From an uncultured Gammaproteobacteria bacterium (GTDB taxonomy: Bacteria; Pseudomonadota; Gammaproteobacteria; Eutrophobiales; Eutrophobiaceae): 64,000 nucleotides of DNA. The notes beneath the pieces are model-generated. The model was given only the letters and a program-made list of their open reading frames with translations. It made no database searches and was not told the DNA's origin. The stretch lies in assembly GCA_943788815.1 (NCBI GenBank), contig CALSRS010000001.1, positions 900,069 to 964,068 on the forward strand. Direction: 5' to 3'. The translations under genes and the position numbers were made by a program. Shown one piece after another: positions 2,817 to 52,938 of this stretch (its first letter is position 1; every line of letters starts with the position of its first letter).

Positions 2817-3134
2817 CTACTCTCCAGTTGTAATCCCGCTGATCTGACCATAGCGTTCTTCATATTGATCCAGGACATTACTTAGTAATATTGACAAGCG
2901 CTTGGCAGCATATGGACTGACGAGAATACGGTCTGAGAGTTCTATCGAAACTTCTTTTTGCTGTGCATTCCAGGCCTGATTGAGACCAAAAAATAATGCG
3001 ATTTCTTCCCGAGTGCTGGCAACGTTACATACATTTGCATAAGTGCTCTTCATTTGCGAATCATCCCAATTTATCTTAGGGGGAGTATTAGTAGCAGCCG
3101 GCTTACTCGCCGTTGTGGTTTTTTTAGTGACCAT
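2817..3134 (-). CDS. Small conserved hypothetical protein, DUF3467-like, translationally coupled to the giant gene.
   Basis: 105 aa. It has a good SD (AAGGA) 7-8 nt upstream of the ATG and starts only 14 nt after the giant gene's stop codon. The motifs …INWDDSQMKSTYANVCNVASTREEIALFFG… and the C-terminal …AAKRLSILLSNVLDQYEERYGQI match my recollection of the DUF3467 family. The family assignment is from memory, not from a search. Confidence 0.45.
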   Translation of the reverse strand: MVTKKTTTASKPAATNTPPKINWDDSQMKSTYANVCNVASTREEIALFFGLNQAWNAQQKEVSIELSDRILVSPYAAKRLSILLSNVLDQYEERYGQISGITTGE

Positions 3135-3148
3135 TATTTTTCCTTATA

Positions 3149-6100
3149 TTAATTTAACCTGATTCTTTTAAGTGCATTTTCCCACTCACTATGAGACACG
3201 AGCACATCATCTTCATCTCCTAAAAAACACTGACTGTTTTCATCCCAGTACCTGACTTTTCGCTGTTTATGATGCAACTTATCGATGCCTTTTTGATCTA
3301 TTCGTATATTACCTTTACGCTCGCCATTTGTCAGTTTCCAACCAGTTAATCCTGCAAGAAGAGCGGACTCTATCACTATACTATCAGAGTACTCCGCCAT
3401 ATTATCATCGGCAATAACTAAACCTTGTTGATCTTGAGCAGGTAGCATAAAGGTTGTACCTTCTGTATTAAGATCGTTCCTGTTCGCGCCAGCCGACTCA
3501 TCTTCTTGAGCATCAGTTTCTTCTTCTGGCACACCTGGCTCTGAGTCTTCAATTTCAGATGGATCCTGAATATTGGTAGTTTCTGTTGCTGTCTCGAGTT
3601 CCTGATTTTCTGTTTCATCTGGACCCTCTTGCTGAATATCAGGCCCGCCTTCTACTTCATTAAGTTGCTGATTTTCAGTTTCATCGCTATTTAACCTTGT
3701 CTCATCTACATTTATATACTCATAAGAATGCGTGTCGATAAAGCTCTGATATTCAATAATTCCTTCTCTGGAATAAATTGTCCCTGTGTCTTCATCAATT
3801 TCTTCCGGAACATCAGGCAAGTTCAGCGGGGCAAGAAGATTACCTACGGCTTCATTCTCTTCTTCCTTATTTTCATATAGTCCAGATGTGGTTGCAGCCA
3901 ATAAATCCAGAGAGCCTTGTGCAAGGTAAGTAATAGCAATTACTTCACCATCATCTTCGTTCTGAGTAAGATACGCATATTCACCAGACAATATGTCATC
4001 CGATAATACTGCATTAAATAAATCATTACCAAAGCCGCCAAACATACTGTCATTACCATCTCCACCATCGAGAACATCATCATCACCTATAAACAACTCC
4101 GTTGTTTCTGAAATAACCAGCTGGCCATTAATAAAGGTTGCCCTACCGCCGTCACCAGAAATAAAATCACTGCCTTCATCACCATATAGCTCGTCAGCTG
4201 CTGCGCCACCAATAATTACATCATCATCTTCACCACCATGGACCTCATCCTCGCCACCATTATCTGAGAAAAGACTCTCAACCATATCTAGTGTGTTGGG
4301 ATCGGAATCTGTTAAATTAAAGACAGCGATGCCAAGATCGCCAATCACTATATCCTTACCTGCGCCGGTAAATACTAATTCATTCCCCAACCCACCGATG
4401 ACAAGGTCATTACCGGCACCGCTATCGATGGTGTCATCACCAGATGTTGTCAGGTTTGTGTCCGTCGTAAAATACTCATCCGCCAGACCATTGATATAAT
4501 CGGCAATACCATTATCACCAAAGATAATGTTATCACCGTCTGCGATGGTTACCTGATCATCACCAACACCTGCAAATACCAGGTTATTTCCACCACTTAC
4601 AGAGATGATATCATCTCCGCCCAGGGCACTTAATTCGCTTTCAACCTGGACGCGTTCACCACTACTGCCATATCTGACTGTGCCATTATCACCCAAATAA
4701 ATACTGTTACCAGCGCCAGATTCTATGGTGTCGGCACCACCCCCACCGATCACAACTTTATCGCCATCGCCCATAGTTACATTATCATTACCACCTATAT
4801 TACTTTCGGTATTAAAAATAGTGCTCTTGATCCCCGCTGTCCACTGAATCTCGCCGTTATCCCCCATTACATAATCCGTACTGTCTCCGGTATCAATGTC
4901 ATCACCGCCCACACCACCAATCACCACATTTACATCCGTGGCACTGGCACCGCCCAGCGTCAGAGTGTCTGCACCACCAGCAGTGCTGGTGCTCTTCGCC
5001 ACTTCCAATATGTTATTGGCGTCATATCCAATCTCACCCTCATCACCCACCACATAACGTGTGCCCACACTGCTCAGCGTCGTCGTCACCGTGTCCTCAC
5101 CCAGTCCAGCTATTACCACCTTGTCACCACTGCCAAGGGTAATACTGTCATTGCCACCGGCCTCACCCAGATAACTCTGCATGTTAATCAACTGCTCAGA
5201 ACCCGCAGGTCCTGTATACGTCATCACACCGTTATCGCCCACAACATGGTCGGTACTCGTCGCCGCCACTACCGTAATCGTGTCGTCATCACTGCCACCA
5301 ATTACCTGGTTCACATCCCCCGACAAGGTGATCGTGTCCTGGCCACCATCAGCATTGGCCGTGCTCTTCACCGTGCGCAACGCGCCAGTCGCATAAACGA
5401 TCTCGCCGTTGTCTCCAATCACACGGTGTATGCCAGACGTCCCGGTGTCCACCGTGTCATCCGCCATACCGGCTATCACCGTCTTCGAGCCATTACCCAG
5501 GTCAATATCATCATTGCCGCCAAACGCACTGTTGAGGCTCACCATGCTATCGATAATGCCACCCGTCCACTGAATCTCGCCGTTATCCCCCATTACATAA
5601 TCCGTACTGTCTCCGGTATCAATGTCATCACCGCCCACACCACCAATCACCACATTTACATCCGTGGCACTGGCACCGCCCAGCGTCAGAGTGTCTGCAC
5701 CACCAGCAGTGCTGGTGCTCTTCGCCACTTCCAATATGTTATTGGCGTCATATCCAATCTCACCCTCATCACCCACCACATAACGTGTGCCCACACTGCT
5801 CAGCGTCGTCGTCACCGTGTCCTCACCCAGTCCAGCTATTACCACCTTGTCACCACTGCCAAGGGTAATACTGTCATTGCCACCGGCCTCACCCAGATAA
5901 CTCTGCAGGTTAATCAACTGCTCAGAACCCGCAGGTCCTGTATACGTCATCACACCGTTATCGCCCACAACATGGTCGGTACTCGTCGCCGCCACTACCG
6001 TAATCGTGTCGTCATCACTGCCACCAATTACCTGGTTCACATCCCCCGACAAGGTGATCGTGTCCTGGCCACCATCAGCATTGGCCGTGCTCTTCACCGT

Positions 6101-21100: not shown

Positions 21101-24100
21101 TGCCTCGGCAAGGGGATTGGCCAGCGCAATAGAAGCATCTTTATCCAGCAACTCGAACAAGGTCACGTTATTAAGTAAGGCATCAAGCGCGTCAAGGGAG
21201 AAATCAGCTTCACTCACAAGCGTGGTATTACCGTTGAGAATTAGCCCACGGTTTACAAAATTTTGTACAGCATCAACATAAGCCCGCTCCGCATTTGTGC
21301 CGCTTTGCAGGGCGGTGTCAAGTGCGATACTCGCCGTGTTCAGTGCATTGAGTGTTGTAGAGAGCTCAAAGATATGGGTGAGGGTATCAACCTGCAGTGA
21401 CACCGTGGCATTGGCAACGGTGTTGTCAGCAAGCTGATCGAGTATACCAATTTGGCTCTCCTTATGTGCCCTGGACAACGCATCCTGGACATCGATAGGT
21501 TCGACACCACTTGGTAGCACGGGCAGCTTGCTATAATCATAAATAAAATCTCCAAGGAGCAGTGTTTGTTCCTCAATGCTAAGGTCAAATCCGCTGTTAT
21601 CGCGGGCATTGATAGTCAACTTGTCACCATCACCAAGGCCGCCTGCAATACGCACTACCCCTTCAATTTCATTCAAGTCATAGTTCTCTGGCAGGGTTTT
21701 AATTACCGTACGCTCGGGTAATTCATCGAAGCGATAGGAAGCCGCACCCTTTTCTATCATGGTGTGCTTGATACGCTCAATGTTGATCGTGTTATCAGGT
21801 GCTGGCAAATCGACTTCATAGAACAGGCTGATCACATCCCAGAACAGGTTATTGCCTGATAGCGGTTGGGCACCACCCATACTATAGGTAGGCATCCATA
21901 CACCATCCTCACCTGTTATATGTGGCAGCCAACCATTGGCAGGTACCTGGTGAGCATAAAGATCGGTAAGGAATAGATCGGGCTCATAGAAGAAACCGTT
22001 GTTCAGCCAGTTAAAATCAGCAAAACCCCAGAAACTTCCGGAAGAAGTAGTAAAGGTCTGCTCAACGCGAGGACTGAAAAGCCCGGTACCCTCTCGTACC
22101 GGCTCTGCCCGGATCATGTCACCCGCAATAGCATGGGCAATAGCGGTGTTCATATAATTGAATAAATGCCGATCCAGCGTTATGCCGCCGGCATTGAAAT
22201 TTGTGTTTGGTGCAATGGTTTGCAGCGTATCGAAATCAACCTGTGTAGGGAGAATCGGTGACCAGTCGTTGTTCAGGGCATTGTTTAATGAGCTATAGTA
22301 GGCGACGCTATAGCTGAGACCAAGGAAGCCATGATAATAGCCATAGGAATCGACAGTCTGATAATCCCAGCGGTACTGGTTAGTATTCTGCAACTGTGCC
22401 TCGAAGGTATTCAGCGATGTCAAGAATTCGTTCTTCTCACTACGCGCACTAGCACCCCAGCTACTGGGTGAATTCTTCAGGGGGACAACACGATAAGTCG
22501 ATGCCGCCAGTTCAACTGCCTGGGCATACAGTTTAAGTGCAACGGCCAGGTTTGCTTCGAGCAGGGCCCAGTGTTTCAGACCGATATCGACGTTGAGCAA
22601 GTCTGAGGCACTTATCTCAGGGGCAACCCATTTCTTATAGAAGTCACGCCAGGCTTCATCTTTATCGGTTTGTGAAAGCAGGCTGTCCAATGAGCGATAA
22701 CGATGATTAAAAAATGCGTCATTGTAAAAAGCATTCTCATCAGCGGTGAACTCGACAGCAAGGTCCTGTTCGACGGTGTACACCGCACTGGACTCGGGAT
22801 AAGTAACGGAGAAATGCCGCTCCTCGCCACCAATTATGATTTCATCATTACCGGAACCCATGTTAATCAACAAACTGAGACTGGGGTCAATTCCATAGAG
22901 ATAAACCGTATCATCACCGGAGCCGGTCAACAGCGCGAGTCGTTCAATACTATCGATATTCTCGAGCTTGAGACCGGCGCCAAAGAGATACTGGCGGTTA
23001 TCTTCGTCGGTAAAGACATAGAATTCATCGGGAAGCGCGGTACCTGCTACAACCACGGTGTCAAAACCACTACCACCATAAATCTCAACGCGGTTGTTCT
23101 CTACATAATCGATGAGGATATCTTCATCTTCCTCGGCGATGTTGTTCTCGGCATCACCGGCACCGGCGGTGATCTGGCCGCCATCAATTTCCTCGGTGGT
23201 CATGGCACCGGGGGCACCCTTGGCCTGCAACTGCGCCTTGAGGAAAAAGGTATCATCACCGGCCTCACCGAAGAGTTCAAGTTCACCAATGTTATGGTTG
23301 ACCTCAAAGTAGTCATCATTACCGCCACCAAAAAAGGCCGCGTTGAAGCTGACTCCGGGTGTAATACCGTTCTCGCCGTCAACCACTTCAACCATGAGAC
23401 CGCCAATATCGACGGTCTTGGTCTTAATCACGCGGCCGATAAGAAAATTGTCCTTGCCTTCGTCACCGGACACCACCATGGCGGCCATGCTATCGTCGGA
23501 AATAAATGTATCGTTCCCCTTACCGCCACGGATATCAATCACCTCTACGCTGCGATCATAGTAAACGCGCTGATAAACCGTAGGATCAGACACGGATATT
23601 GACTCGCGCGTCGTCGCTGCCGCATCGGCAACATCAAGCGGCGTGCTGGCCACGTTCGTGGTAACGCCAATGGCAAAAAAGTTTTCCTTGTCATCAAGCA
23701 GTGCATCATCAAGAAAAACACGCCAGGGTGACTGGCTTGTACCTGCACCGGTGACGGTTGCCACCGTAATATCGTCCAGACTCTCAAGTGCAGCTTCTAT
23801 GTCCGTAGCGTTGGATTGGTGAGAAAGACCAGAAGTACTGGTATTACCGTTGTAGGTGACCTCAAAGGCACCGGTTTCGCCCGGCAGGATATTAAATAAT
23901 TGTGTTTCGTTTGCCGGCCGCTCGAACAGGGCATCAAGATCGGGTTTACCATCCAGCAGAGACTGTGCAAGGTCTGCCGTAATACGGGTCACCGTTGCCC
24001 GGGTCACATGCAATTTAATTTCGATATCATCGCTGAGCAGGCGGAAAAAACGACCCTCGGAGTTACGCCCAACAGTGCTGGCGTCATTAATAATGATGTT

Positions 24101-30100: not shown

Positions 30101-33100
30101 GCTGCCCAGCAATACCACTGCCAGGTCTAGATAGCGGAACTCTACTTCAGCTGCGTTACTCGGCAACCCGATAAGCTGATGATCATTGACATCAGCGGCC
30201 GGTATGGTGGTGCCGATGGTGGTGCGTATGACAGTAGTGCTCGGGTCAAGGTTACCACCTCCTGCGGTCAGTTCCAGTTGCAGGTTATTGATACCACCGG
30301 CAAGTTGCGCGGTATTGGTAAACTCGAATGACCAGGGTTCGTCTTCAGTGGCGCTACCTGTAACAATAACTTCAGTTATATCCGCAATCCTGCTTTCAAG
30401 ACGTCCGCGGATGTCATTGGCAGCATCATCCTGTTCGATAACAATGCCCTCATCACCATACCAGAGGATCGCATCCTGACCGCTCCCAAGCTCCCAGGTG
30501 TTAATATGCAGGAGCTGGATACGATTCGCTTCAATCAGGTTTGCCGCCGTAGCTTTCTCAATCAACACAGGCTGATCGGCTGTCGCCGGGTCACCATCAT
30601 CCAGGTACAGATACTCGGCATCCGGATCATTGATGCGATAGAAACGCTGATCCACCCGCGTGTCGTCTCGCGGTGCAAGTGTTCCAATGTAGGACTGCAC
30701 ATCATAGTGATGCGCAAAACGTTTGAACTTGCCACTGGTATCGGTATTGGCTGAGATAAGGTTGATTTTCCAGGGATCTGCCAGCGTTCCGGCACCTGTT
30801 ACTATGACATCGCCAACCTGGCTCAGGCTCTCCAGCTTACTTTCAACTTCAGCGGCACTCATACCGGCGGCAATTTCAACACTGTTACCGGGAACAAGGA
30901 CATTATCAACGATGGTGTCGGGGATGCGGCCCGACTCGGTCACATTTTCATCGTAGCCATAGAACAGATTGACACGATCAAGACCGTCGGTTAGAAAAAC
31001 TTCCTGCAGGTGTTGATCGATGTTTGCAACAGAGGGATCAAAATTAGCCGCCTGGTTGACTGCAAACAATTGCGGTGCACCGTCATCTTCATATAGATAG
31101 ACGCCGTTGGCGGCAAGATCAAATCGATAAAAATAATGGCTCTCGCGCAAATCAGGATCACTGGCCACGGTTCCGTCTGGATTATCGGCCGAGACACCAT
31201 AGTTACCAGGGAAAACAGTATGTGTTCCATCAGTATCCCGTAGCGCACTCCACATTTTCGCCAGGTCTGAACCTAACTGCAATTCAACTACCTGAATATT
31301 GGTATCGAGAAGATCGGTGACATTTATACTATCGGTACCGGTGCGAGCATTAATGCGTACATTTTCGATGAGATCCAGCAGTAGCGGATTTCCGTCTACG
31401 GTCAGCCGCGCTGTGGTGTCAGTCGTTCCAGGTGCGGCATGTTCCAGTAGAATGACATTGGCACCATCAGCAGATTCCGCGATTTTGAGATCAAGCACAT
31501 CCAGATCACCTTCACCACCTGACATATCGAGCATGGCACCGGGGGCGATGGGTTCATAAAGCCAGGAAATGGTGTCATTGCCGCTACCGGCATCGACAAC
31601 AGTTGCACCGGAACCCGCATCGATAATATCGTTACCCTGTTCACCGTAGATAGTATTAAAACCGTCTCCAGCCATGATTTCATCGAAGCCGTGACCACCA
31701 CGGATAATATCATCACCAGCACCTCCATCAATGATATCACCACTGAAATTACGCACGGTGAAGTTATCATCAGTGAGTACAACCAGTGTACCAAGACCAG
31801 TCGTAGGGTCCGGCGTATTGTCGATGGGACGCCCCATCGCATCATAATGATCAAAAGGTGTACCATCTGCCTGATAGAAATTAGAGGCACGCACCTGATC
31901 ACCAGCGGCATATCCAGAGCCTTTCTTGGTTGAATAAAGGGCGATATCGGCAGTACTATCCGGTGCGTCGAATTTATCATACTCATCGCCACCATCGAGA
32001 TAATCATTACCGCCGTTGGTAATCAGAACATCGAAACCATCAAAAACGGTATTACTACCATCACCATTATCGTCTATGCCACCAATTGCACGCTCACTAC
32101 CGTCCGCACCCATAATTGTGTCGTCACCCAGACCCCCCTGAAGCAGCACGCCATCGTAAAGGGTATTGACACCCGTGACCTTGACACGATCATCCTTGAG
32201 ACCACCCTGCAACTTGTAAGGCAGCGGATTACCAACGGTTGCGGCCAGCCCCAGTAAAGAGGCATCAATATTAATATAGTCCTCTCCATCCTCGCCGAGG
32301 ATGGTGATTGATTGCATCCAGTCAACACCGTCGTTATCAACATCACCTGCCGAGATGACGACATCAGCACCATCACCCAAAGTCAAATTCAGATGATCGA
32401 TGCGTCCGTCAATTTTCTTAAAATCATAGACATCATTACCATCCGTGCCTTCGGTAAAAATGGTATCAATCTCGGACAGCTCAAAGACCTCGACTCTGAT
32501 GTTATTACTGACTATTAATACTTCGGTTTCGGATCCGGCCCGGAGAGCAGCTAACTGGTTAGCAAGGGCTTGTTCTTCAGATACCGAGGTATAGGCGGGA
32601 TCTAGATAGCCGTTCTCAATCAGGAATGCCTGGGTGAGATCATCATCAACGGCTAACACTTCAATCTTGTATTGATGTGCGGCAACATGGCCATGGTCGT
32701 TCAGATATACATTATTACTTGCATCTCGATAACTCAGTGTAAGTGTATCTGTTGTTGTATCGAGCTGGGCTATGTCAGTTGGCGCATCAAGAGTACATTC
32801 CCAATCAAAGCTCGCGATGACCTCATCGACAAAACGCTCCATAGCCTCGAACAGTGTGATGGTACTGAATCCCAGATCAATCCCGATCCAGAAAAAGGCC
32901 TCAAGGAAAACGGTTAACTCGCCTTGTACATCGAACAGGCATTCCGGACCTTGGGTGATACGTTCAAGTATTTCACCACCAAAGAACTTACCGTCACCGA
33001 CTGGTAGATCGTTGAGAATTTCTGTTTCCTTGTCGTTGAGATCAAATTCGATAGTAGCCTCGATACCACCTTTCACCCCCGCCTCAACGATGCCCCCGAT

Positions 33101-36100
33101 CCCCAAGCTGGCAATAGCGCCAAGCTGGGCGATAAGCGTAACTTCTGGCTCGTCTGAATCCGTATTTTCCTGACCATGATCGTCCAGATAGAAGCCGTTG
33201 ATAATGCGCCAGGACTCTGCAGGATCAAAATCAAGAGCCATCCACTCACTCAGACCAGTGGTATCAAAACCGAAATCAAAATTGGTATAGGCACCAATCT
33301 TGCCAAAGATACCTACGTTTAGTCCGGGAAATACCGGATAGGTAACCTCATGCTCAAATTCCAGTGCGAGATCCGGAAGGTCGTACCAGAATAGATCGGC
33401 CTCACCACGGCCAAGCACGAAATCAAGCAGTGTAAGTGGGTCCTCCAGAACCGGGATACTAAAATTCTTTGTTGGGGGACGTTTCTTGGTCTTCGTCGCG
33501 CTACTCTTGGTGGAATCGTTGTTATCGAGACCCTGCTGATCGGGGCCCTGCAGCTTTTTCTTCTGATCATCAGTGAGATTGGAATCATCCATAACCGCAC
33601 CGGCAGCATCCTCTTCCTGAATATCTGCATCCGGATCTTCAAGCGTACTTTCAGTGAGATTAAAGGTGCCAAAATTAATCTCACCAGCATCAGCCAGGTC
33701 CACCACGGTTTCCAGAAACTCGATGGTACTCTGAATAACCAATAAGACCTTGGTCATGGTATCGACCGTCTGGCCTGGCAACCGTATGCGGGCGATATCT
33801 ATAAATCGGATCGGCGGATCGGCGATACCGCCAAGGGGAAATTCCATCAATAGAATGTCAATTACCGGTTTGATCGGTTCAACAATTTCATAGATGCCTT
33901 CGAGTGTCTCCAGTAGGAAACTATCAAATAAGCTGCCAACATCCAGGGTTACATCTTCGAGAATTAACGAAGGTGAACCAACATCGATCTCAAAACCACC
34001 ATCGGTGGAAAGCATGATCTCGCCCAGTAACTGGCTGTAACGGATGGTAGCAGAGACAGACGGCAGGAATTCTGCAGCAACGGTTTCGATTTCACCAAAC
34101 AGGTTGGCTTCTGCAAACGCCGAGGCAATAAGGGCGAAATCAACGCCTTCTCCGATTTCCCAGCGACCATCTGCATTGGCATCACGGATATCAAGACCAA
34201 GATGACCGCTGAGACCAGTATTGCCAAGTGAATTGCCATTTTCATCCTCGGTATCAAAATTCATCTTCAGAAAACCCAGCGTCCCCGTCGCGGTCGAGCC
34301 AGGGACAAGACTGGCATCAACATCAAGCGCGATCTCTTCACCTGCGATATTAACGCCGCTGGTATCAACGAAGACACCGATGTCTGGTATGCCGCTCTGG
34401 CTTAGGTTACCAATACCCAGTCCGATACCCATCAGATAATCAATCCGGGTGTCTATGGCGACGTCAACATCCAGATTCAGTCCTGGGATGCCGGCTGAGA
34501 AATCAATAGGTAATTCACCATCAACCAGGACACCACCAAACTTGAGATTAAAGGTTAATAGGCCGTTTGGTGTGAAGGTGAGTTCAATATCTTCAAAGCT
34601 GGTGGGTAGGCGTACCTGTAACTTGCCATTATCATCATAGAGATAGGCTCCATCTGCATCGACAATAGGAACCACGAAGGCAAACAGGGCATCCTCGACA
34701 GTGTCCGTATCTGGATCCAGGCCAAGCGAACGGTTGAGATCATCAAAACCACTGAATAAGGCCTTACGTAACTCGTCTAGTACAGAGTCAAAAACACTGG
34801 TTACGCCGGTGTCTATCTTATCCTGCAACCACTCCCCGAGTTTTTCACCGTCGTAATCAGTACCGATTAATTCGCCAAGCACACTGGTACGCAAACCACG
34901 CAGACTATTGGCGAGATCGTCAAAGGCCTCACCGCCGATCAGGGGCAGTTCAATGGAATCAACACCATCTGCAACAAGATCAATACCATCGAAAAATCCT
35001 TCAATACCATTAAGCATGTTGACGGGATTGTCAATATAGGCAATGAAGGCCTGCACTGCATCAAAATCGAGGCTAATGTTTGGTAGAGAAAACTCGAAGT
35101 CTGTTTGAAAGTCGAAATTTTCATCAATAGAGAATTCTGCGCTAGCATATAGTGCGTTATCAGCAAAACCGTTTCCGTCGCGGTCTGTCTCAAAACCACC
35201 AAGCGGTAAGGATTTAATTGGAAAATACATTGGCAGATCCGCCATGGCACTACCAAAGGCCTCAGCCTGAAAGGCACCGTTTAACTCACTAACATCAAGA
35301 ATACCGTCACCATCGCGGTCGGCAGAAGGATCACCCAGATTGGCGTAAAATCCCAGATCTATCTGTGCTGAACCATCTACTATAAAGAGACCGAGCGGCG
35401 GTAAGTTAATCGGACCAACGGCCGGTAGATCGATTGCCAGCGTGGCATCAATATCCGGTGCTGTACCCGAAATACTTGCGGCGATACCCGTATCCTGATC
35501 AACATAGAATATTGGTTCAAAAATATCACTTAGATCAAATCCAAAACCCAGATGCAGGCTGGCATGAGCATCGACCTCAATCGGTGCTGTCAGGCTGATA
35601 TCAAGCACATCCCCTGGATTGAAGCCCAGCCATTGCTGCAGGTTTAGTTCATCGATATCAAGGTTGAGATCAAATGTACGATCCGCCAAGGGACGATCTT
35701 CAAGATCAAAAGCAAAGTCGAGATCAAAATCAAAAGCTGAATTTTCATACTTCAGCGTGACCGGGTTTAATGCCAGTGTTACGTCACCGGTCACATCCTG
35801 CAGGAATGAATTTATTTCACTGTTTAATAGCGCCTCGGCCTCTTTAATATTACGCGCAGTTTCCCGCACAGTCCGCACAGCATCTCCAATACCGCGAGCA
35901 AAGCTGACAGATCCCCCGCCTAGAAGGTCGGCGGTGCTCTTGCCAAGTAAGGCTATTTCATCATAGAGGGCGCCATTTTTTATATTAAATGTGCCCAAAT
36001 CACCCATTGAGGTGCCAGCATCATCAATCAAGTTAACATTATCTTCACTTAATGCGTTTAGTTCGCGGATAAGAACATCGTTGGCTTCCTCCACCCTGTC

Positions 36101-39100
36101 AAGACCAAAGGCGGTCGCTTCGTACACTTCCAATATCAGATCACCCGATGGACGTACCTCGCGGCCAAAATATGAGGTTCCCAAATACTCCCATTCATAC
36201 ATGCGCAACTTGCTTCCATCTTCGAGAATTACAACCTTCGATATCTGATCTCCATCAACACCGTTAACAGGGTTATAGATACCTGTAACAAACGTGGTTC
36301 CACTCGATGACCAGCGTTCGGTATAAATCTCAAGCTGGCCATTTTCGAGCTGGCCCTCGCTGTTTAATGTCCCTCCGACGATCCGACCCAGTACGTCGCG
36401 ATCCACACCCACCATCTCATCCACCAGAGTCTCCAGAGCTTCGAGGATGAGGTCGAGGGAAATCCCATTGAAGCTGAATAAATCTTCAAGACCTGAAATC
36501 TCGATAATATTCGGCAAATTCAGCAAAAAGCCTGCCAGTCCAGCATCTTCAGGTAAAGCACTTGAAGTCGCCGATATCAGTGCCGAACCATCACTCAACT
36601 CGCCAAAGGCACCGGTTGGAACAATAGGCAATAAGAGCTCTAACTCCGTATTGCCACCAAGAGATGGAAAACCGAGTAGACCACCATTGCTATCACCCGT
36701 GATAGCATCCAGTGTCAACCTCCCTGGAATACCAAGTTCAATTTCGGTATCAAAATAAGCCAGACCATCTTCAACTGCGATACCGATAGGGCCTAGACTT
36801 GCTTCAAGTGAGAAGGCCTTACGGATTTGACCGCTGACGGTATCAGAATCAATGAACTCTTCGACTAGAATTTCAGTATCCCCATCAACCAGGGTGACAT
36901 CCAATACAGTGTAAACACCTGGATTATCAAGCGAACCTGTGACATAAAAAGTATCACCAACCTGAAGGTTTACTGCAAAGCGATCGGTGCCGGTATGATT
37001 ACCGGTAACAGTAAAACTATTATTTTCGCTATCCACAGCAATAATTTCGAGGGGCGCATCACCAAAACTCAACCCTGCAGCGAAAGTGGGGTCACTTACA
37101 AAGAAAGTGCCATTATCAGACAGACCAAAACTAAAATTCAGACCCAGATCTGCACTAAATATAAACGGGTTTGATTGTTCAATCTCCAGACCAATGTCGA
37201 TCGCAGGAAAGTTAAAATCGCCCGGGAAGTCGAGCGTCAGGCCATCAAGAGAAAGGTCAATCTCCTGCCTGAAAGAGGCAAGATCGATTTCAGCGCGAAA
37301 CTCGGTAAGATTTGAGGAATCCGTCGCAGCAAGGGATATGGAACGTCCTGCCGACAATAATCTGGAATTGACCACTTGGCGGAGCTCGTCGGTATCAGGT
37401 TCAAGCACATCAATATCATTGAAGTAATTCATCACCTCATCTGCGAGGGCACCCAGATCGTCTAATATCAACTGTGTTATGGAATCCAATGCCCCATCCA
37501 GTCCAAGCAGCGACGAGATACTTTTATCGGTAAAAGGCAGATCACCGGCACTATTAATATAATCAGCGATATCGTCTCCGATATTCTCCGCCCAGTCGGA
37601 AAACTGGTCCAGGCCATGACCCAGGGCGTTTTTATCAACACCGAGTATATCAGCGGCATCCGTGGTCGTTGGCAACGCCCTGACGTCGGCGGAAACCTCG
37701 GCATTCATGATTGAGCCAACAGTGCTGATGTCGACGAGACCGAGTACATGGCCAATCTCATGGGCTGCAACGGTAAGCAGGTCAATGGTGCCATCGCCGG
37801 GGGCCGGCCCGGTGGCGGCATTGGTATGCCAACCATAGCCAGCGGCATCATCGTCTATAAAAATAACAAATTCACCACTACCATTAAGTCCGGCATGCCC
37901 GAGGATCAGGTCATCAAGAAAGTCAGGGTGAGTTTCAAAGTCAATTACTTCATAACTGATGGTATCAAGCTGGTTCAGAACCGGAGAATCTGCTGATAAC
38001 GGGCCGATGGCCCAGCTGGCAATCGCCGCATCCTTAACTTCCTGGGCGATGTCGTCACCAAGGGTCAGGGTGCTGCCCTGTAATGAAGGTCCCGGCCCAT
38101 CGGCAGCCACCTGAGGCAGGAAGAATTTTTTCTTTAATTTTTTTGCAAGCTTTTCACCGAATGAGTCCGTGCTTACCACTTCAAAATTGCCATATGCCAC
38201 TACCGAATCTGTGACTACGCCACCAACCTCAAAATAATAAATAGTTGGTGAATTGTCTCCGATGATACTGATCAGATCGCCGACCGGGTTCTCGCTAAAT
38301 AGATTGGCAATCCCGTCGACTGCCTGTCGTATTAGGGTATCCTTCGGTAATGCTGAGAAATCAAGGATATCGAGACCACCACCACTGATGACAATGTCGT
38401 GGCCCCAGCCGGATTCAAACGAGAAAACATTGCTACCATGATTACCGATAAGTAAATCATTACCTTCGCCACCACGGGCGTTTTCAATGCTGGTAAAAAT
38501 ACTGGCATCGTTCGGTGCGGGACTGAACTTAATCAATCCCGGGGCATCGGCAATCATTTTTGTACCTGCTATGATGCCGGTTGTGGTTGTGGTGAGGGCT
38601 GGTGTGACACCGTCCGTCACCAGATACCATGTTTTGCCAGCAGCGCCAATGAGGACATTGACATTGCCACTGCCAACCGCACCCAGGTCTTCAAGTTCAC
38701 TCATAAGGGTTGATGCGTTGGCATCGAATGAAATCTGTGAGGTTTTATCGGCCCCATCACTTATTGAGAAGATACCAGCATCGGCATCGATGCTGAGGAC
38801 TTCATAGACTTGTGCCAGACTGCCACCGGCATTGACGGCAATGCTGACTCCTGGCGGCACGGTGCCAATTTTACCGATAACAAGCATAATGTCCTCGGCG
38901 CTACCGATATAAGCATCCCCATCAATGCCGTTAACTGCGGCGGCAAGCCCGGAGGCTACATCCTGGGGAGTGTCTCCACTGGTAACTGTGTACATGTAAG
39001 CATTAGTGTCCACGGTCACGACCCATTCGTCACCAACGACAACAGACACCGCTGTAAGGTCGATGGTTACCGTAACGACATTGGTCCCCAGAGTCATATC

Positions 39101-42100
39101 GGCGGTATTGGGACCCAGAACCGACAACGCGGTGGCCGTCCCGCTCGGATCTGTAACCACAATCGTCGAACCGTCGGCTGCAGCAGCAAGATTAATGGTC
39201 TCCGAGGCATCAAGTTTGCGTGCCAGCTTGGCAGCGATAATTTCGAGTGTATCACTGGACTTGGCTTCATATTCGTAATCCGTCCCGCCGTAGGTGATTC
39301 GCCAAATATCACTTGCGTTTACAGTGCCGGTGAGTTGAATCGTTTCGGAGACTGCAGTTACAGTATCTATTGGAGCACTCATAACAGGTTCAATGCGCGT
39401 CTCAATCACAGGAACAACGGTCGCACCCGGTTTCACCATGACAATGCTCAGACCCTCAACCATTGCCACCACATCACCGCTCATATTTATTTCAGATGCA
39501 AGGCCGGCAAGGGTATCGGCGAGATTGACCGTGGCTACAGGATGCGTGAAGTCCTCTATATCAACCGTGATGACCCAGGTATCACCCACCACCGGTGTGC
39601 CCTGTAGCGCGATGAGTGTCGTGGAGGCGCTGTTTAGTACTGAGATAGATCCTTGTGCCCCGTCAATGCTTGCATTAGGTAAACCGCCCAGGATATTCGA
39701 GATAATTACATCGTTGTTCAAGGCTTTGGCGGTGATACCCTCCGCTGCATCAATGAGTGCGGCCAGGTCCAGCGCAAGCTGGTCGTGGGTGGGTGGTGTG
39801 GACGGGATAGTGACCTCGTAGTCGATGCCCTGGACAGTGATCTTCCAGATATCACCATTAACCAGAGTATTGGTCTGATCCAGCGTGACGACCTGAGTTT
39901 CGATAGCCTCGATGGTCGCCGAACCCGGCGACGGTCCACTTGCAAAACCATACTGAGATAGAATTGTCCCAGCAGCAAAGGTCAGACCACTGGAATCAAG
40001 AGAGATTGATTTTATCTCGGTGGTAGAATCGGTTTTGAATTGCGTGCCATCGGGCGTCTTGAAACTGATGACGAAGGTTCCGGCCTCGGTACCCGCCGTA
40101 ACCTCAACATTGAGTTCCCTGCCATCTTCAAGCATGGTGACATTATTTCCATCGACATCTTTGAAATGGGTAAATCCGCCATCAAGATTCAGTGCATTGG
40201 CGATGTTCTGACGAAGCACAGAGGCATCGGGATCAAATGAAATTACCTCCGTGGTAAGTATACGCTTGGCAATAGGTTTCCCGATAAGATCCGTCACACC
40301 CAAATATCCAGCGATCTCACTCAGGGCACCACTATCGTCTTCAAAACTGAGTTTGAACGTCCCACCGTCGGCATTCCCGATATCGACGATTTGTTTTAGA
40401 TCACCATCATCATCGAATTCATATACACCAGTTGATTCCAGTACGATGGTGGCCCCCGTGGTATTGCCCTTATAACTGATGGTATCAGCACCGCTACCAC
40501 CGTTGACCGTGTCCTGTCCACCAGCACCGATGACAAAAAGATTGGCATCCCGATTGCCAGTGATAAAATCATTTCCAGAAGTGCCAATAACATTATCCAG
40601 ACCCGAAACCGCATGTTTACGGAAAAAATCATCGGCCACGCCAGCATCACCAAAGATCTCACCGATACCTCCAAACCGATAGCCTAGGAAACCCTGCGCA
40701 AGTCCGAAGTTCTGTTTTATTCCCTGTGTCTTTCCAAGCAGGGGAATTGTGATAGAAGGAATCAGTACGCGCTCACCGGTGCTAGCATCGACGATGATAC
40801 CGGCGTCGGCACCGCCGTCGACCGTGGTATAGGCAAAGGGTGAGACAGCTTCACCATCGGGATTGACCAACCCAGAGGCATTGACTATCAAGTTTTCAAG
40901 ATTTGCAGTTGAATCGAAGGTGACCTCAAATACACCGGCGGCGATACTCAGGGGTTCCACCGCCACCGTGATGCCCGCCGCACTGAGCAGGATATCTAGT
41001 TCTGTTTTGATATTAGTAGCCGTGGTTGTTGGCGCGAGGTCAATGGCAATATTGTTGGTCGGCGGCAGGGGGGTTCCGGGATTATCGGGGTCATCGATGG
41101 TGAGGGTAAAGTTCTGACCGTGATTGGCCCCCCGCAAATCGATGACCTGCCGTTCCTTGATGATGCCGGAAGGGTCGCCATATTTAGAGTAATCCAGCAC
41201 AACTTTACCGGTGAGACCAGTGGCAGTTATGGTACCGGGCAGGGTTGCCCCGTCATGCAGGACAAAGGTATTTATCCCTTTACCACCAATAATATTTTCA
41301 ATATCGGTGGCGAACACAACACTACCGGACACCACCTCAAAAAATGGCGTGCCTGCCAGAAAATCACGGATGATCGGCAAGTCGGCGATGGTACTGTCGC
41401 GGGCGATGATAAAGGTCATGCCCACATCGAGGAAATCAGAAAGATTACTGGGCCCCGTTGCTCCCTGAAGTGCATTTACCTGGGACTGAAACTGCCCGGC
41501 AAGCGCATCCTTGTTCTGTGAGGTCACCTCGTAAATATCGAAGCGCATATTGGAGGCGATACCCGAAAAATCCAGGGTATCCTGACCATCGGTCAGATCA
41601 CCAACAAATGGGATAGGATTGGGCAGTTCAAGTACCGCACCCAAGCCCCAGAAACCATTGAATTTGTAGGTATCACCACCGCTGAGTCCAGCAAGCACAT
41701 GAACACCCGGATTAAACGGGGTATCCATTAAACTGCCCAGTTCCACCTTCAGCTTAGCTTTTAGCTCTTTTAGCAAGAGCTTTTGTGCCTCGGTTTTCAA
41801 GGCCTTAGCTACGAACGCAGCAGCCTTACCAACATCGCTCTCCGGTGGATTAGCAGTAAGCGCTCCGAATTTCGCCATCAGCTGGCCGAGCTTGGAATTC
41901 GGGTTACTCGCATCGAGTAAGGCCGTACCCTCGAAGATCTTGGTACCGCCGGTTTTGAGTTGCTTGGTCAGATAGTCAAACAGTGTCTGACCCTTGTTCA
42001 GCGTAAAGACATCACCGCCGAAAAGATTGCTGAGGATATTTCCACCGACGGCACTGAATCCACCACCATTAGCCGTTTCAAAGAGGCTGTCAATATACAG

Positions 42101-45100
42101 GTCTGAACCGACAAAGGCATTCAGGCCATATCCGAAGTTAACACCAGTTATATTTCTCAGAGTACCACTGAACCCCGACAGGGACTGGCTAACATCATTG
42201 GAAGTGATTGCCTGAATTGGTACCTGTGCACCCGCAGTATTAAATGTGATAACAAAGGGATCATTCTTGGTACCAGTGCCATCGACAGTTTCAATCAGGG
42301 GTGATTCCCCCGCAGTATTCAGGGCAAGCTTGATTGCATCCTTATCAGCGGTATGATCGAGTACCCCGGTCGCAATACCATTGATGACCAGCCGGTATTC
42401 TCCGGACTTGAGCTGATTGACCAGGTGCTGGACTTCTTTGACCGCAGTCCCACCAGCCTTGACTTCTACTGCAATGACATTGTCATTTGCCAGTGTTTGT
42501 TTTAGTGCTGCCGAATTCAATACTAATGTAGGAAAGTCTTTACCGGCATCCGTACCGGTGAAATCAAGAGTCCAGATGTTTTGACCAATAGTCTTGGTCG
42601 CAATGACTTCAAGCTTGAGCTTATCCATGAGGGCGGCCTCAAGGTCGGCCTTGGAGATATCATAGGCCAATGCATCGGTCTCACTGCCATCCATCGAGAG
42701 GGTAAAGCTGCCATGATTGGCAATAAATTTCAGTTCCTGCTTTTCGTTAGATGCGGCGATGACATCATTGAGTTTGTTATTGGTATGTGACCCGCTCGAT
42801 CCTGAACCCAGTTGTACCGTTAAGCTGCCGGCAGCTATGGGATTAACCTTCAGGGTGAAGGCCGGGTCACCGTTCAGGGCGCGGCTTAGTTTAAAACTAT
42901 TGAATGCACTGGTGGCAGAAGAACCGCCGCTAATCTGGCCAAGCTCAATTTTAATCGCCTGTAATACGCTGTCGAGATTCTGGTTCCAGGTGATATTATT
43001 GGTGGTCTTGCCGCCGTAGCCAAGGGTAAAGGTATCACCATCGGCCATGCCCGAAAAGGAAAAGACCCATGCCTCTAGTGCTGCGGGATGTCCATCCTCC
43101 AGGGTGATTATCTGCGCGATGGGTGCATTGGTAGCTCGACTTAGACCAGAAAGATTCAGACTACTAAGGCCAGCCGGAATAAAACCAGCCTTGGCTGTGT
43201 AATTGATGCGAAAGGGGTCTGTGGCCGCACCGCTACCAGTCACCTTCACAGAGTTTTGTTCAAACTTAGTTATATCAATATTATCTTTCAGCAGTTTTTC
43301 GAGTGCACTGGCAGTCACAGCAGCCGGGATATTGGCGACTGGATTACCTTCAATGGTAAGATTGAAGCTACCTATGGCGGTGTCGGTAATAATGAGATGT
43401 TGCGTAACTGAACGATTGAGGGTGTTTTGGTCGTCAAGTAGTGTGCCGAGCACTACAAGTTCGCCACCGAGCTCTTCAAATATAATGTCACCTTCCAGCT
43501 TCATGGTTGGCACATCTCGGGGCGACTGGAAAGTCACCAGGAAACGGGCGTCGGCATTTTCCCATACAACAACAGCAGCGTTCGCACCCAGGGTTTTATC
43601 ATCATTGAGCGCTGCCTGTATAGCCTCAGCAGTTTTGTCACCGTTAAAATCAATATCACGTTCTGCACGTGTGCCATCGACCTTTTTCAGATCAATATTG
43701 GTGGTGTTCCTGGTCGTGCCTGCTTGATCGACCACGGTCAACTTGAATCCGCCGGTCTTGCCTGTGACATAGATATATTGTTGTTCCTGGGTACCAGGTG
43801 TTCCGGCTACACCCTCGGTTTTGGTAATGATTTTAACCGCGGGCGCCTCCACCGTGCGCCCAACGATAATGGACGAGGCGGTAATCAGGGGCTTGGTACC
43901 AGCCGTGGTAAAGCTGATTTCATAAATGCCATCCGATGCACCGGGAGTGACCGTGATGTCACCCTCACTGATATTACTAAGGGTTTCCAGACCCTCCTTG
44001 ATTTTAGCTGCGGTGAACTCGGGATTGACGGCAATCAGCTCAATGGGGCTTGCTGTGGTCTGGCCGTCGAAGTTGAGGTTGAAGCCTCCAAAGCTGGCGC
44101 CAGTTGGCAGTATCAATCTTTGCACGGCAACGCCGCTATCACCGCGTACTGCTGTGGTGGCACCAATTGTAGACTTGTCTGGCAAAGTCAGTAGGGAGCC
44201 GGTGGAGTAAGGGATCCCTTTGACGTTCCCCTGCGGTACCTTAGAGATATCAACGGTATTGGTAACCAGCAGCTGTGGTACCTGCAGGCCGCTGGCCTCT
44301 TTAAGATTGTTGAACGTGAGTAATGCTGACGCCGGGCGGAAACCTGTTCCACCTTCGAGCGTGCCGGCATAGCTTGCTCCGCTACCCAGGGTATAGGTAT
44401 TTGCATTGCCGCCGCCTTTGATAATGGTATTGGCATCGACATTGCTAAAGGTCACTTTGTTATAATGTGTCGGTTGAGGTATGAGTTTTTTCTCTACCAA
44501 CTTACCTATTGGGGAAGCGTTCGCAAATAGACTGGAAGAATTATCTATCTTGCTGACGCTGAGGCTTGTACGCACGTCTTTGTCCAGTAATGTCACGGAT
44601 TTGCCTGCTCCACCACCGGATATTTCGAGCGCGATGATTTCATCTGTAGTGGTATCGGCCTTATCAAAGCTGACTATCCAGCGCTGGGCGGCACTGGGAC
44701 CATCTATGACCGTGACATCGAGATTTTCGCCATTGGCATATTTCAGCTTGTTAAGCTCCGCCGCTACGGTGGCGGCATCAGCATCAAAGTTAATCTGTGC
44801 GGTGGTCTGTTGTGCAGCGATCTCGACATTGAGACTAGCAGAGCCTGCAGTGACTGCGAGATTTGATGTGACACCCTTGGTGTGGAAGGTGACCCTGAAT
44901 GTACGTAGCGTTTCATCTAGAACTCGCACACTCACACCCGTCTTGACTGAGAAACTTGATACTTCTTTTTCAATCGCGCGTTCAATATTGTAGGCAGTAT
45001 CCTTAACACCACTCACAATTTTTATATCGTTGATATTCAGGGTGGCACCACCATCCGGGTCTGTCATGCTTAAATTAAAGGTGCCGGAAGTCTGGCTATT

Positions 45101-48100
45101 AAGGTTGAGTGTCAGGGTTTCAGAATCCTTATATATCAGTTGGACAGTACCACCTGAAAGATCATGATCGAGTGCCTGGACCGAGTAAACTTTAGACTCA
45201 AACTTAAAATTGAGTTCATTAGTTACATTACTGAAATCGATCTCAAGCTCATAACCTCCGGCCGAAACCAGGCTGGTATCAACGGTGATCTCTTTCGCGG
45301 GGCCAGTCTCCACACCCCAGTCATCTCCGAAGATAAAACGGTTGCTCGCATTGGCGGCGACGATGTTTTCAATATTAGCAAGACCTGATTCTTCCTTGCC
45401 ATCCTGCAAGGTGGTGACTAAACCCGGGGCCTCAACAAACTTCGAACCATCCTGTTTAAGAATTATAACCTCTGGTAGGTCTTTCAGCTCAGGGGCATTG
45501 AACTGAACATCAAACTGATTCGTCCCACTAACCGTTACCGTAACAGTGAACTTGGGATCGGAGATAAGCTTGGTCAACGTCGACAAAAACCCGTTCTTCT
45601 GACTCAACAAATCCAGCTTTTGATCAATATTTGTCCGTGTCTCCTCATCGGTGGTACCAATTTGAATGGCATCACTAATCGAACCACCGATGTCGATCTT
45701 GAACGTACCAGTGGGCGCACCGGCAAGTGAAAAATCAATACGCTGTTTCTCATTAAGTTTTCCGAGCTCGACTTCATTAGTTAAGGTCACACCGGTTGAA
45801 GTAACGGCGGCGTCAAACTCATCTTTCAGGGCGGCTGTATTGATTATCAGCAGCGGGGGAGGCTCATTAAAATTCAAAAATTCAACCAGGAACTCATTGG
45901 CATTGCCGGCCATTACGGTGATCTTGGCACCCTTCAAGGCTGATACGAATACGTTGCCGATAATGAGCTCGGTCAGGGACTTCTGAATGGTCTCGGCAAG
46001 AACATTCTTATCCTCGGAATACTGAATAGATATGCTTGGATTTCCCTGGTAGCTCAGTGTGAAGCTGCCAGAGGCACTGTTGCCGAGATTGACGTTCTGT
46101 ATCGGGTTGATCTTCTGCACATTTGGCACTTCAAGCAGATTGCTACCCGTATAGAGGCCCGAGGAATCTCCAGTCGCAGTAAAACTGCGTTGCCAGGAGT
46201 CGGTATTGGTAGGCGTAAATATACCATCACCTGTTCGTAGTGCGCCCTTATTCAGCACATGGGTCAAGGTGGTGGTGACTCCCGAAAAATCAATGGTATC
46301 GTTACCACCATTTTTACCATCAAAAATTTCGGCGGTACCCCAGTTTTCACTGATCGCATAGGTATCATCGCCATCACCACCGGTGAGTTCGTTGTCTATA
46401 CCGCCCTTGATTTCAATGCGGTCGTTGCCGGCATTTCCATAAATAATATTGCTATCGAATTCCGCAATCAGGATGTCGTCACCACCGCCGCCAAATACAA
46501 GATCATTTCCTGCGCCGGGTTCGATGGTGTCGTTGCCAGTACCGCCCTCAATGTAATCATCGTTATCTAGCCCATAGATAGAATCCTGACCTGAACCACC
46601 GAGTAATTTATCAATCCCCGTACTACCATTTAAAGTGTCATTACCAACAGAACCATCAAGAATATCCTGGGTAATGCTGGCGTTAAGTAAGTCATCACCT
46701 GAGGATCCGGTTACAGTTTGTTTGTTGTCCGTATCTGCAGTAAAGGTAATCCCGGTACCACCACCAATAACCTCATGAACTGGAGCGAGAAACTTACTGA
46801 AACCTGGTGCATCGTCTGTGGTTAAATCGATTATTGCAGCAATGTTTTCATATTCCGAATAATCAAGAATATTGAGTTGGTCGGGCGCCACCGGGGTGTT
46901 GGCCTTGACCTCTCCGCTGAGAGCATTGGCGGCTTTTATAACGTAGGTATTGACGCCTTTACCACCAACCAGATTGGCAATACCCTTGGCTTTCACAATA
47001 AACTCATAATTTTTTTGGAATGGATAACCCTCATGACGCACTACGGTTGCAGTAACCTTCACTACGCCGTCTCCTTCGAGTTCAAACCGTAGAGTATGGT
47101 CAATACCAACGTCAGAAAAATCGAGGGTACCCTTGTTCAAACCAGCTGCGGAGTCATCGATCGTGAAGACGTGTATGGGTGTCTTATCATCCGGGGGATC
47201 GGGATCGAAGTAACCCCAGTAGTCATGGAAGCGATAAATGTTGGTGCCACTACCACCCTCCAGCTTTTCGATGTTTGCCGCATCAGTGATTTTATTTATG
47301 CTGCTTCCCGTTTGTTTAACCTGAACGCCCTTAGGTCCGGCGGCAGCTGCTGAATGGTAAATATCGAATTCAAGGTTGGCAGCGACAGTAGAGAAATTCA
47401 GCAGATCGCCGGTTCCTGCATCAGGTAACTCTTTGACGGTATCGGTGCCCCAGTTAGGATCGAATCGAATCTCGTCGTTGCCGGCACCCAGTTCAAATGT
47501 CTGGGCAGAAGAACTGCCAATTGCGATATCGGAATCTTCTCCTCCATAAATATTTCCCGCATATTCAATCTTATGATAACCCTTATCAACTCGTATATCG
47601 CCAAAATCACTGGCCGAGATGTTGGTGAATTTTATAATGCCGGGGATACGTAATGGGTCTGAATTTATTACGCTGATGAGTGCGGGATGATTTGAGTCGC
47701 TGCTATCGAGAGCACCATCAGGCAAATTGATATTGAGTTTTGATGCTGACGGGAAGTCTGTAGCCTTGATCAGTTCATTTACCTGACCACCCTTTAAGAG
47801 AATAAGGTCAATATTACCGGAACCGGCTTTACCAAAATGAAGCTGATCGAGTACCGCCTCGTTGACTTTAACTGCGACCGAACCGGCAGTACCCACAGCG
47901 GCGAAGGTGTCGGTTTCATTTTTACCAATTGCGAATTGTAGAGACAGTATGTTACGGGCATCGAGTTCACCGATGCCGACTTTGTTGAGTATAACCTTGA
48001 TGTTCTGATCGGAGTCCGCCGTACTGCCAACCATGAGTGTCTCAAGTCCGCCATCGCCGGCCTTGACCACATACGTTGCAGAATTACCGTTTGTATGTTC

Positions 48101-52895: not shown

Positions 52896-52938
52896 CCAGA
52901 TATAACAAAGGGGCTGAAAGCCCCTTTGTTATATCTGG
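52896..52938. other. Perfect 18-bp-stem hairpin overlapping the tRNA-Ser CCA end.
   Basis: ccagatataacaaagggg ctgaaag cccctttgttatatctgg. There is no U-tract after it on the minus strand (AAGAAAAAAG follows), so it is not a canonical intrinsic terminator. Confidence 0.6.

Follow-up and report, generated by a model that had tools for sequence, protein, structure and literature searches.

A 15,403-residue LEPR-XLL/DUF4347 protein and a conserved gene cassette that may export it without an ABC transporter

Genomes of bacteria often encode giant proteins, which have hardly been studied, and the export of a chain of 1.6 MDa by a cell is still to be explained. The question is raised in a concrete form by a stretch of 64,000 nucleotides (the window) from an uncultured Gammaproteobacteria bacterium of the Eutrophobiaceae (GenBank assembly GCA_943788815.1, contig CALSRS010000001.1, positions 900,069 to 964,068), in which one gene on the minus strand (3149..49360) encodes a protein of 15,403 residues, here called the giant. 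From sequence comparison we favour, with a probability of approximately 0.6, a reading in which a dedicated TolC-dependent export apparatus, encoded around the giant, has it as its cargo and no ATP-binding cassette (ABC) transporter takes part. The giant is a very acidic, almost cysteine-free, predicted calcium-binding (RTX) protein of approximately 1.6 MDa, which belongs to the LEPR-XLL/DUF4347 family and, as part of the same reading, would be exposed at the cell surface or secreted.

A putative export cassette around the giant gene

A gene for a TolC-family outer membrane channel (49619..50959, minus strand; PF02321, E 2.3e-49) is found 258 nt upstream of the giant gene, and its product scores 270.9 bits against the cutoff of 225.15 of the TolC-family model TIGR01844. 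An earlier reading of the window made from the sequence alone (the original prediction) had placed a TolC gene and secretion accessory genes beside the giant, and both are there. Downstream of the giant, and on the same strand, are the genes for a DUF3467 protein of 105 residues (2817..3134; PF11950, E 1.8e-22), which starts 14 nt past the giant stop with no terminator-like site found between the two genes in a terminator scan; for a GAF-bearing membrane fusion protein of 608 residues (881..2707), with one transmembrane segment at residues 345-363 and a cytoplasmic GAF domain; and for a 715-residue protein that joins an M50 metalloprotease to a fusion-protein domain, the first 293 codons of which, with the zinc-site motif HEFGH, fall at 1..880 before being cut by the window edge. 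A SecA-like ATPase of 660 residues and, after it, a small fusion protein of 270 residues are encoded outside the window and were read from identical contigs. What these accessory genes do not include is the ABC/HlyD pair of type I systems: no ABC transporter was called among the genes in the approximately 10 kb downstream of the giant, nor among those beyond TolC, and the three fusion-domain proteins score only 39.8, 22.9 and 18.8 bits against the 208.65 of the type I HlyD adaptor model TIGR01843.

The same set of genes recurs in other genomes in the same order, namely the giant, the DUF3467 protein in its same position, a GAF fusion protein of approximately 608 residues, an M50 fusion protein of approximately 715, a SecA-like protein of approximately 660 and a small fusion protein of approximately 265. 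Giants in that order were sized at 6,150 residues in Marinobacterium aestuarii, 6,215 in Thiomicrorhabdus, 8,040 in Desulforhopalus, 10,905 in Ca. Sedimenticola and 12,502 in a gammaproteobacterial metagenome-assembled genome (MAG), so that the protein of the window, with 15,403 residues, is the longest of the six cassette-linked giants sized. At E<=1e-10, at least 7,751 relatives of the M50 fusion protein were found at cluster level, their length, 713-716 residues, varying strikingly little; the closest named ones are those of Marinobacterium (67%), Neptunomonas (65%) and Amphritea (64-65%), and among species-representative genomes there are at least 586 relatives. Nearly all of the 80 loci that were examined, which span Alpha-, Beta-, Gamma- and Deltaproteobacteria, Nitrospira and Omnitrophota, hold the genes for the GAF fusion, M50 fusion, SecA-like and small fusion proteins in order. 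A same-strand open reading frame (ORF) of at least 1,000 residues with GGxGxD motifs, running off the locus, is present at 29 of the 52 loci with at least 3 kb of upstream sequence, and ABC-like ORFs are found in only four of 83 cassette loci.

The giant itself begins with a basic segment (residues 1-20) followed by the LEPR-XLL leader (residues 21-43; 49232..49300, minus strand; ...EQLEPRILLSADLG), which reads LEPRILLSAD and matches the LEPR-XLL/LEPR-8K model NF012209 with 32.3 bits against a cutoff of 17 (sequence EQLEPRILLSAD). The motif occurs in 71 of the 117 DUF4347 homologs that have a Met start, at a median position of 22 and with a net-positive segment before it, and in 57 of these 71 it is directly followed by SAD. 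When the 1,054 ORFs of at least 300 residues in the cassette loci were scanned, the strict LEPR-XLL pattern was matched by four (by 0-1 in shuffles), in each case close to the beginning of a large ORF that lies downstream of the cassette, and in three cases within approximately 1 kb of it. In Nitrospira, a DUF4347 protein adjoins a TolC-like gene, a fusion protein and the M50 fusion protein. The conserved N-terminal leader tracks with the cassette, which usually adjoins very large ORFs; those adjacent ones of which the start can be seen bear the leader. One of the four matches belongs to an Omnitrophota MAG (L081:12648-22094), in which the cassette has no separate SecA-like gene and the ORF behind it, of at least 3,149 residues, has the leader ...RRARPAHFEAMESRILLSAN and no DUF4347 domain.

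At the locus of the giant, the genes beyond that for the small fusion protein are an amidohydrolase gene, two small ORFs and a gene for a second DUF4347 protein with a basic leader (L001:20071-21827, approximately 8 kb past the left edge of the window; leader LKALEPRIMLDAAA; DUF4347, E 1.2e-53), so that the locus would encode at least two putative cargoes. Searches of the literature on LEPR-XLL, DUF4347, DUF3467 and combinations of SecA, M50, HlyD and TolC returned no description of the cassette, an absence that concerns the searchable literature only. The cassette without an ABC transporter is widely conserved and appears to be undescribed.

The M50 protein joins an N-terminus with a weak likeness to PqqD, the M50 core and, on the periplasmic side, a HlyD-like domain. 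With a PF02163 score of 36.4 against 27.2 and at least five hydrophobic segments it has the make-up of the M50/site-2 proteases, and H210, E211, H214, N304, P307 and D312 do not vary among 24 diverse homologs. Its best named relatives are leader peptidases of ribosomally synthesized and post-translationally modified peptides (RiPPs), daptide_HExxH (1.2e-46) and YydH/LiaK (3.4e-08), both matches being below the cutoffs. It shares with these leader-removing enzymes the M50 core, the invariant zinc site and the PqqD-like N-terminal region, which is weak here and is recorded in several homologs; it differs from them in the fusion to a periplasmic fusion-protein domain, in a length that is fixed at approximately 715 residues across classes, and in being linked to megadalton proteins instead of short peptides.

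The SecA-like protein keeps the TGEGKT, DEVD and TNMAGRGTDI motifs and, judging from their sequences, catalytic residues are retained in motor and protease alike. Only residues 18-604 of Bacillus subtilis SecA are covered by the alignment, indicating that the protein is without the helical scaffold and its two-helix finger, and lacks the wing domain and C-terminal tail as well. It falls below every SecA/SecA2 equivalog cutoff, its best score being 596.8 against 814. With SecA/SecA2 this ATPase has in common the two nucleotide-binding domains, a preprotein cross-linking domain and Walker motifs that are intact; it differs from them in being encoded by a separate gene inside a cassette of TolC and fusion proteins, in which neither SecY2 nor accessory Sec genes occur. 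The SecA_DEAD domains reported as fused into Omnitrophota and actinobacterial giant proteins also lack scaffold and wing (bioRxiv 10.1101/2023.11.21.568195), whereas the cassette motor is a gene of its own.

In the GAF fusion protein (L001:10001-11827, corresponding to window positions 881-2707), an N-terminus of approximately 340 residues, cytoplasmic and with the GAF domain, is conserved family-wide, suggesting a small-molecule signal as the gate for export. A protein with cNMP-binding and rhodanese domains is encoded at 61651-63156; nothing ties it to the GAF fusion protein. The cassette-linked DUF3467 proteins (L009-L091) are unusually conserved, with a mean column identity of 59% across classes and with W23, D24, Y32, N34-V38, R42-E44 and F49-G50 among the invariant residues. 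The idea that DUF3467 is a SecB-like chaperone is not supported, as hhalign gave a probability of 0.4% against the Escherichia coli SecB sequence and a profile search of the PDB returned nothing.

One gene of uncertain repeat number

The gene starts with ATG and runs for 15,403 codons in a single frame, the translation having its sole stop at the end and the window being free of N, which gives a protein of approximately 1.63 MDa with a pI of 4.05. By taking into account 3/64 stops per random codon, the arithmetic estimate of the chance of 15,403 stop-free codons is approximately 10^-322; thus, the giant ORF is a selected reading frame. The locus was found in more than 20 contigs of other samples and assemblers. 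In four short-read assemblies from other samples the gene is open from its start to the end of the contig, for 14,114 residues (JGI 3300028829), 14,046 (ENA ERZ27295583), 14,009 (Logan ERR9769285) and 12,395 (JGI 3300028844); these contigs begin at the adjoining insertion sequence (IS) element or at the TolC gene, and the three longest end at residues ~14,000-14,100, at the onset of near-identical repeats. One more contig has the giant called at 14,919 residues, and over the first 12.4 kb of the gene ten contigs are 99.94-99.99% identical.

It could still be argued that assembly or polishing has created the single ORF, or that it is a pseudogene in decay, and that there are in fact several genes or one of a very different size. 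The ENA contigs ERZ106465xx-ERZ10646601, which span the whole gene, have it called in two to six pieces, an array of 726-nt repeats with 99-100% identity could have been collapsed or expanded, and an IS element is nearby. However, the positions of the breaks in the ENA contigs vary from contig to contig and each is a 1-nt gap at 99.94-99.99% identity, as expected for indel errors of assembly and not for a true interruption of the gene; the four short-read assemblies keep the frame open, the three longest up to the repeat; a chance ORF of such length is impossible; and related genomes have giants of 6,150 to 12,502 residues in the same position. An artefact is, therefore, scarcely credible, and the 46-kb ORF is confirmed as one real gene, in line with the view of the original prediction that it is genuine and not a set of fused ORFs.

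The figure of 15,403 residues, which was part of that prediction, stands as far as the open frame is concerned, and is uncertain by one repeat of 242 residues. The near-identical tandem array (4839..7363, minus strand) contains approximately 3.5 copies of an RTX-like unit of 726 nt, or 242 residues, and in the contigs L003 and L004 the array is shorter by exactly one unit than in the window and in the contigs L001, L002 and L005. A copy number of three or four, depending on the assembly, leads to 15,161 or 15,403 residues, so that the true length is one or the other, or varies in the population. The cassette-side short-read contigs L007 and L008 start approximately 100-700 nt past the array, L007 opening with repeat-derived sequence. 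Tandem Repeats Finder, with a period limit of 500, missed the array, which was detected by another repeat search and BLAST. A 715-residue antisense ORF on the plus strand (5246-7393), wholly within the array and with a GC skew of -0.27 to -0.35, is most likely a by-product of the codon composition of the repeats and not a gene.

With either length, the rank given to the protein in the original prediction, among the largest of bacteria, is overstated, since bacterial proteins of 36,805 and 85,804 residues have been reported in a study in which those above 10,000 residues are called 'large' and those of at least 30,000 'giant' (bioRxiv 10.1101/2023.11.21.568195).

As to the surroundings of the gene, scans for promoters and terminators yielded sites that are no more numerous than in shuffles. 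Beyond TolC there follow an IS3-type element, a tRNA-Ser gene, csrA, an aspartokinase gene, alaS, recX and recA. The IS3-type element (HTH_Tnp_1 orfA and rve orfB), at which short-read contigs break, and tRNA-Ser(GCT) lie between csrA and TolC (51265-52607, plus strand; 52936-53026, minus; ~53283-53480, minus). The G+C content is 0.46-0.53 in the giant locus and 0.42-0.45 in the housekeeping flank, a difference that could reflect an island inserted at the tRNA or merely a coding sequence rich in Gly, Asp and Ala. A 330-residue ORF without a Pfam match (60655-61647, minus strand) is found among the housekeeping genes.

Anatomy of the giant

The giant has the make-up expected of a calcium-dependent exoprotein, with 15% Asp+Glu, 4.7% Lys+Arg, 27 GGxGxD motifs and only four Cys, one of which is the invariant Cys of the DUF4347 domain and another part of the C-terminal end motif. 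The original prediction had described a basic N-terminus with a LEPR-XLL motif, an N-proximal RTX block, dozens of diverged beta-rich modules, an embedded metalloprotease-like site, and a C-terminal RTX region with an acidic tail. The first two and the metalloprotease-like site are borne out, while the descriptions of the modules and of the C-terminus need to be modified, as detailed below.

For residues 1 to ~125, which include the leader, no stable structure is predicted. They are followed by the DUF4347 domain (residues 212-360; 48281..48727, minus strand), which matches PF14252 over profile positions 12-161 of 164 (E 2.5e-50, 170.9 bits against 24.6). In an alignment of 121 homologs, G297-C298 is invariant and S254-H255-G256 is at least 90% conserved, making H255/C298 the candidate catalytic pair. 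The AlphaFold2 model, confident for residues 210-350, has a caspase/CPD-like fold (clan CD, caspase-hemoglobinase; CPD, cysteine protease domain) according to the fold comparison. The latter was needed to connect the domain with Tce1, as a profile search of the PDB with the N-terminal alignment gave only a marginal match to 9qpe (E 0.056). Tce1, a DUF4347 protein of Pseudomonas aeruginosa, has been described as a putative cysteine protease in which His186/Cys240 align with the dyad of the TcdB CPD (PMC13323088). From the model we infer that the giant carries a putative clan CD protease-like domain near its N-terminus. Its location, as an N-proximal module of a giant exoprotein, sets it apart from other clan CD members (Tce1, PDB 9qpe; TcdA/TcdB; MARTX CPD; CHAT; caspases): Tce1 is a small type VI secretion system cargo, and the CPDs of TcdA/TcdB and MARTX are internal toxin domains.

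The DUF4347 family is widespread in free-living sulfur oxidisers, sulfate reducers, Nitrospira and cyanobacteria. A word-indexed search with the N-terminus of the giant retrieved short or partial proteins only, the giant not being among them, so that a length distribution of the family was not obtained. With the members of the LEPR-XLL/DUF4347 group (NF012209, PF14252) the giant shares the leader and the DUF4347 domain, both above the cutoffs, the very great length, the RTX repeats and the serralysin-like matches, while being about twice as long as cited for the family. A member of approximately 8,000 residues is mentioned, with no functional data, for Vibrio sp. VB16 (PMC10868602), and in the searchable literature no function or export route is experimentally known for the family.

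The N-proximal RTX nonapeptide block (residues ~879-1000; 46361..46726, minus strand) gives E values of 1.3e-15 with PF00353 and 1.2e-17 with the RTX region of CyaA, and weaker blocks are found near residues 2930, 3630, 5900, 8200, 13860 and 14870-15110. A module of approximately 100 residues is repeated in two blocks, of 13 copies (residues 1092-3629; 38474..46087, minus strand) and of 20 copies (residues 6138-8608, including one RTX unit; 23537..30949, minus strand). The module was detected by an iterative profile, which was seeded at residues 7290-7385 and converged on approximately 33 copies, with no match in ten shuffled sequences and two in the reversed one; self-BLAST of the whole protein had returned the trivial match only, so that chunked BLAST and phmmer were used for the internal repeats. 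Its consensus (GGFTLSYAGNT...TAADIEAALESL...VTVTG...PWRVTF) does not match any Pfam family, and neither does either block. With TAADIEAALESL placed between strand-like segments, the module looks mixed alpha/beta rather than all-beta; the predicted dozens of diverged beta-rich modules are borne out in part, and large stretches of the giant are non-repetitive and without a match.

The metzincin-like site (residues 3843-3908; 37637..37834, minus strand) contains HEIGHVLGLVD (residue 3867) and a SIM turn and scores 28.9 bits against a cutoff of 24 with the matrixin family PF00413, over profile positions 95-154 of 159 only, that is, the C-terminal half. The third zinc-ligand position is Asp instead of His; the homolog P0252 keeps the motif as HEIGHVAGIEH.

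Approximately half of the giant gives no family, repeat or PDB signal, with long non-repetitive stretches. The family matches obtained were generic RTX, DUF4347, LEPR-8K, a partial M10 and a few weak ones below threshold, and a sequence search of the whole giant against PDB chains returned RTX matches only. An example of a 'dark' stretch is that of residues 4401-5500 (32861..36160, minus strand), for which no Pfam, NCBIfam or PDB match was found and only eight homologs, at 45-74% identity, in a word-indexed protein collection. Its AlphaFold2 model, based on a nine-sequence alignment, has a mean pLDDT (predicted local distance difference test) of 45.9, and no fold conclusion was drawn from it. 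Three of the eight homologs carry Planctomycetes MAG labels (45-62% identity, two at 60-62%; short contigs), which may reflect either horizontal transfer of segments of the giant gene or misbinning. For residues 11001-12200, a HMMER scan of 1.84 billion representative proteins gave 88 matches, one of them full-length.

The C-terminal ~800 residues (14587-15401; 3158..5602, minus strand) contain RTX units, PF00353 matching the last 703 residues with an E value of 2e-14, and are conserved among cassette-linked giants, with 39-40% identity to those of Marinobacterium and Thiomicrorhabdus and 33% to that of Desulforhopalus. An acidic stretch is also present, as predicted, but it is not the very end of the protein: in an alignment of four giants a basic motif, AGLxGWKLxxGERxG...HKQRK...WDE..QCF, is conserved behind the variable acidic linker (3152..3370, minus strand).

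Proposed mechanism, alternatives and meaning

In the mechanism that we propose, the basic N-terminal leader ending in LEPRxLLSAD would serve as the address tag for export, and would be recognised and probably removed by the M50 protein, a role assigned by analogy with the RiPP leader peptidases that are its best named relatives (below the cutoffs). The SecA-like motor would then feed the chain, still unfolded and probably with the N-terminus leading, into a duct formed by the fusion proteins and TolC, and outside the cell the RTX blocks would bind calcium, which would drive folding and thereby pull the chain through. The DUF4347 domain, with its conserved His/Cys pair, may cut the giant itself or a partner. 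The mosaic body, made of approximately 33 modules, RTX blocks, the metzincin-like site and unique stretches, would most likely be a surface fibre or adhesin with enzymatic parts.

Several observations weigh against this picture. What links the cassette to export is conserved gene neighbourhood only, and within the apparatus no component is identified for the inner-membrane channel. TolC is visible near the cassette in only four of the 83 loci, though the giant usually fills the upstream flank, and a gammaproteobacterial DUF4347 protein (L105) has no cassette within 10 kb. The PqqD-like match that would favour leader binding is weak in this M50 protein (E 0.012, below the cutoff). The protease activity of DUF4347 is called putative in the Tce1 paper itself (PMC13323088), and the adhesin label is a guess from composition and analogy, as about half of the giant is without an assignable fold. 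Finally, a C-terminal signal of the type I kind would likewise agree with the strong conservation of the RTX region and end motif at the C-terminus.

The last point leads to the alternative that places the giant among the classical RTX adhesins or toxins of type I secretion, like LapA, SiiE or MpIBP, so that it would leave the cell C-terminus first through an ABC/HlyD/TolC system encoded elsewhere, with the cassette serving, for example, the efflux of peptides or small molecules. With such systems (LapA, SiiE, MpIBP; HlyBD-TolC) the locus shares a TolC-family channel, here encoded next to the giant, fusion proteins of the HlyD/RND-adaptor type, and an acidic, Cys-poor cargo with C-terminal RTX repeats. 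The conserved C-terminal region and end motif would also favour this alternative, as would the fact that the named enzymes closest to the M50 protein have small ribosomal peptides as their substrates. However, where type I systems have an ABC transporter and one fusion protein, the locus has a truncated SecA-like ATPase, an M50 protease and three fusion-domain proteins, and, as noted above, no ABC transporter is called among the genes covered on either side of the giant and ABC-like ORFs are rare at cassette loci. Where type I adhesins have a retention module, the giant has an N-terminal leader: in no chunk of it was there a Pfam or NCBIfam match to a LapA-like N-terminal retention module or to tandem Ig-like (BIg) repeats, and models of C-terminal target domains were not matched either. 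The fixed order of the cassette beside giants across proteobacterial classes, and the leader that tracks with it, also argue against an unrelated efflux function, making classical type I export unlikely. More doubtful still is a MARTX-like toxin, in which DUF4347 would be a host-activated autoprocessing protease freeing effectors, such as the metzincin-like part, within a eukaryotic cell. The CPD-like fold that might favour it lies at the extreme N-terminus and not between effector domains, as the internal C80 CPD does; no MARTX repeat or effector family was matched; ABC secretion genes of the MARTX type are absent; and the family is widespread among the free-living organisms listed above.

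Overall, the locus was rated as resembling the TolC-dependent one-step secretion of RTX giants, with a different engine. If the giant is indeed the cargo of the apparatus encoded around it, a broader proposal can be made, tentatively and at somewhat less than even odds: the cassette may represent a distinct and widespread secretion pathway of diderm bacteria for megadalton LEPR-XLL cargo, with a SecA-type motor, transport N-terminus first and leader removal by the M50 protein, the giant of 15,403 residues being the largest cargo so far. A fixed five-gene cassette plus TolC is found in hundreds of species of at least the Alpha-, Beta-, Gamma- and Deltaproteobacteria, Nitrospira and Omnitrophota, and in it the type I ABC transporter would be replaced by a truncated SecA motor and a membrane protease resembling leader peptidases. 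The truncated SecA parallels the fused SecA_DEAD domains, a hint that SecA-type motors may be linked more generally with very long cargo. The giant also exposes gaps in current catalogues, with a module of approximately 100 residues that is absent from Pfam and thousands of residues that have nearly no relatives among 1.8 billion representative proteins. The existence of culturable carriers (Marinobacterium aestuarii, Neptuniibacter caesariensis MED92 and Thiomicrorhabdus sp. Milos-T2) makes genetic work feasible. The putative export cassette and the leader that accompanies it are a more interesting result than the size of the protein, and the locus offers a concrete and testable answer to the question of how giant proteins may be exported.

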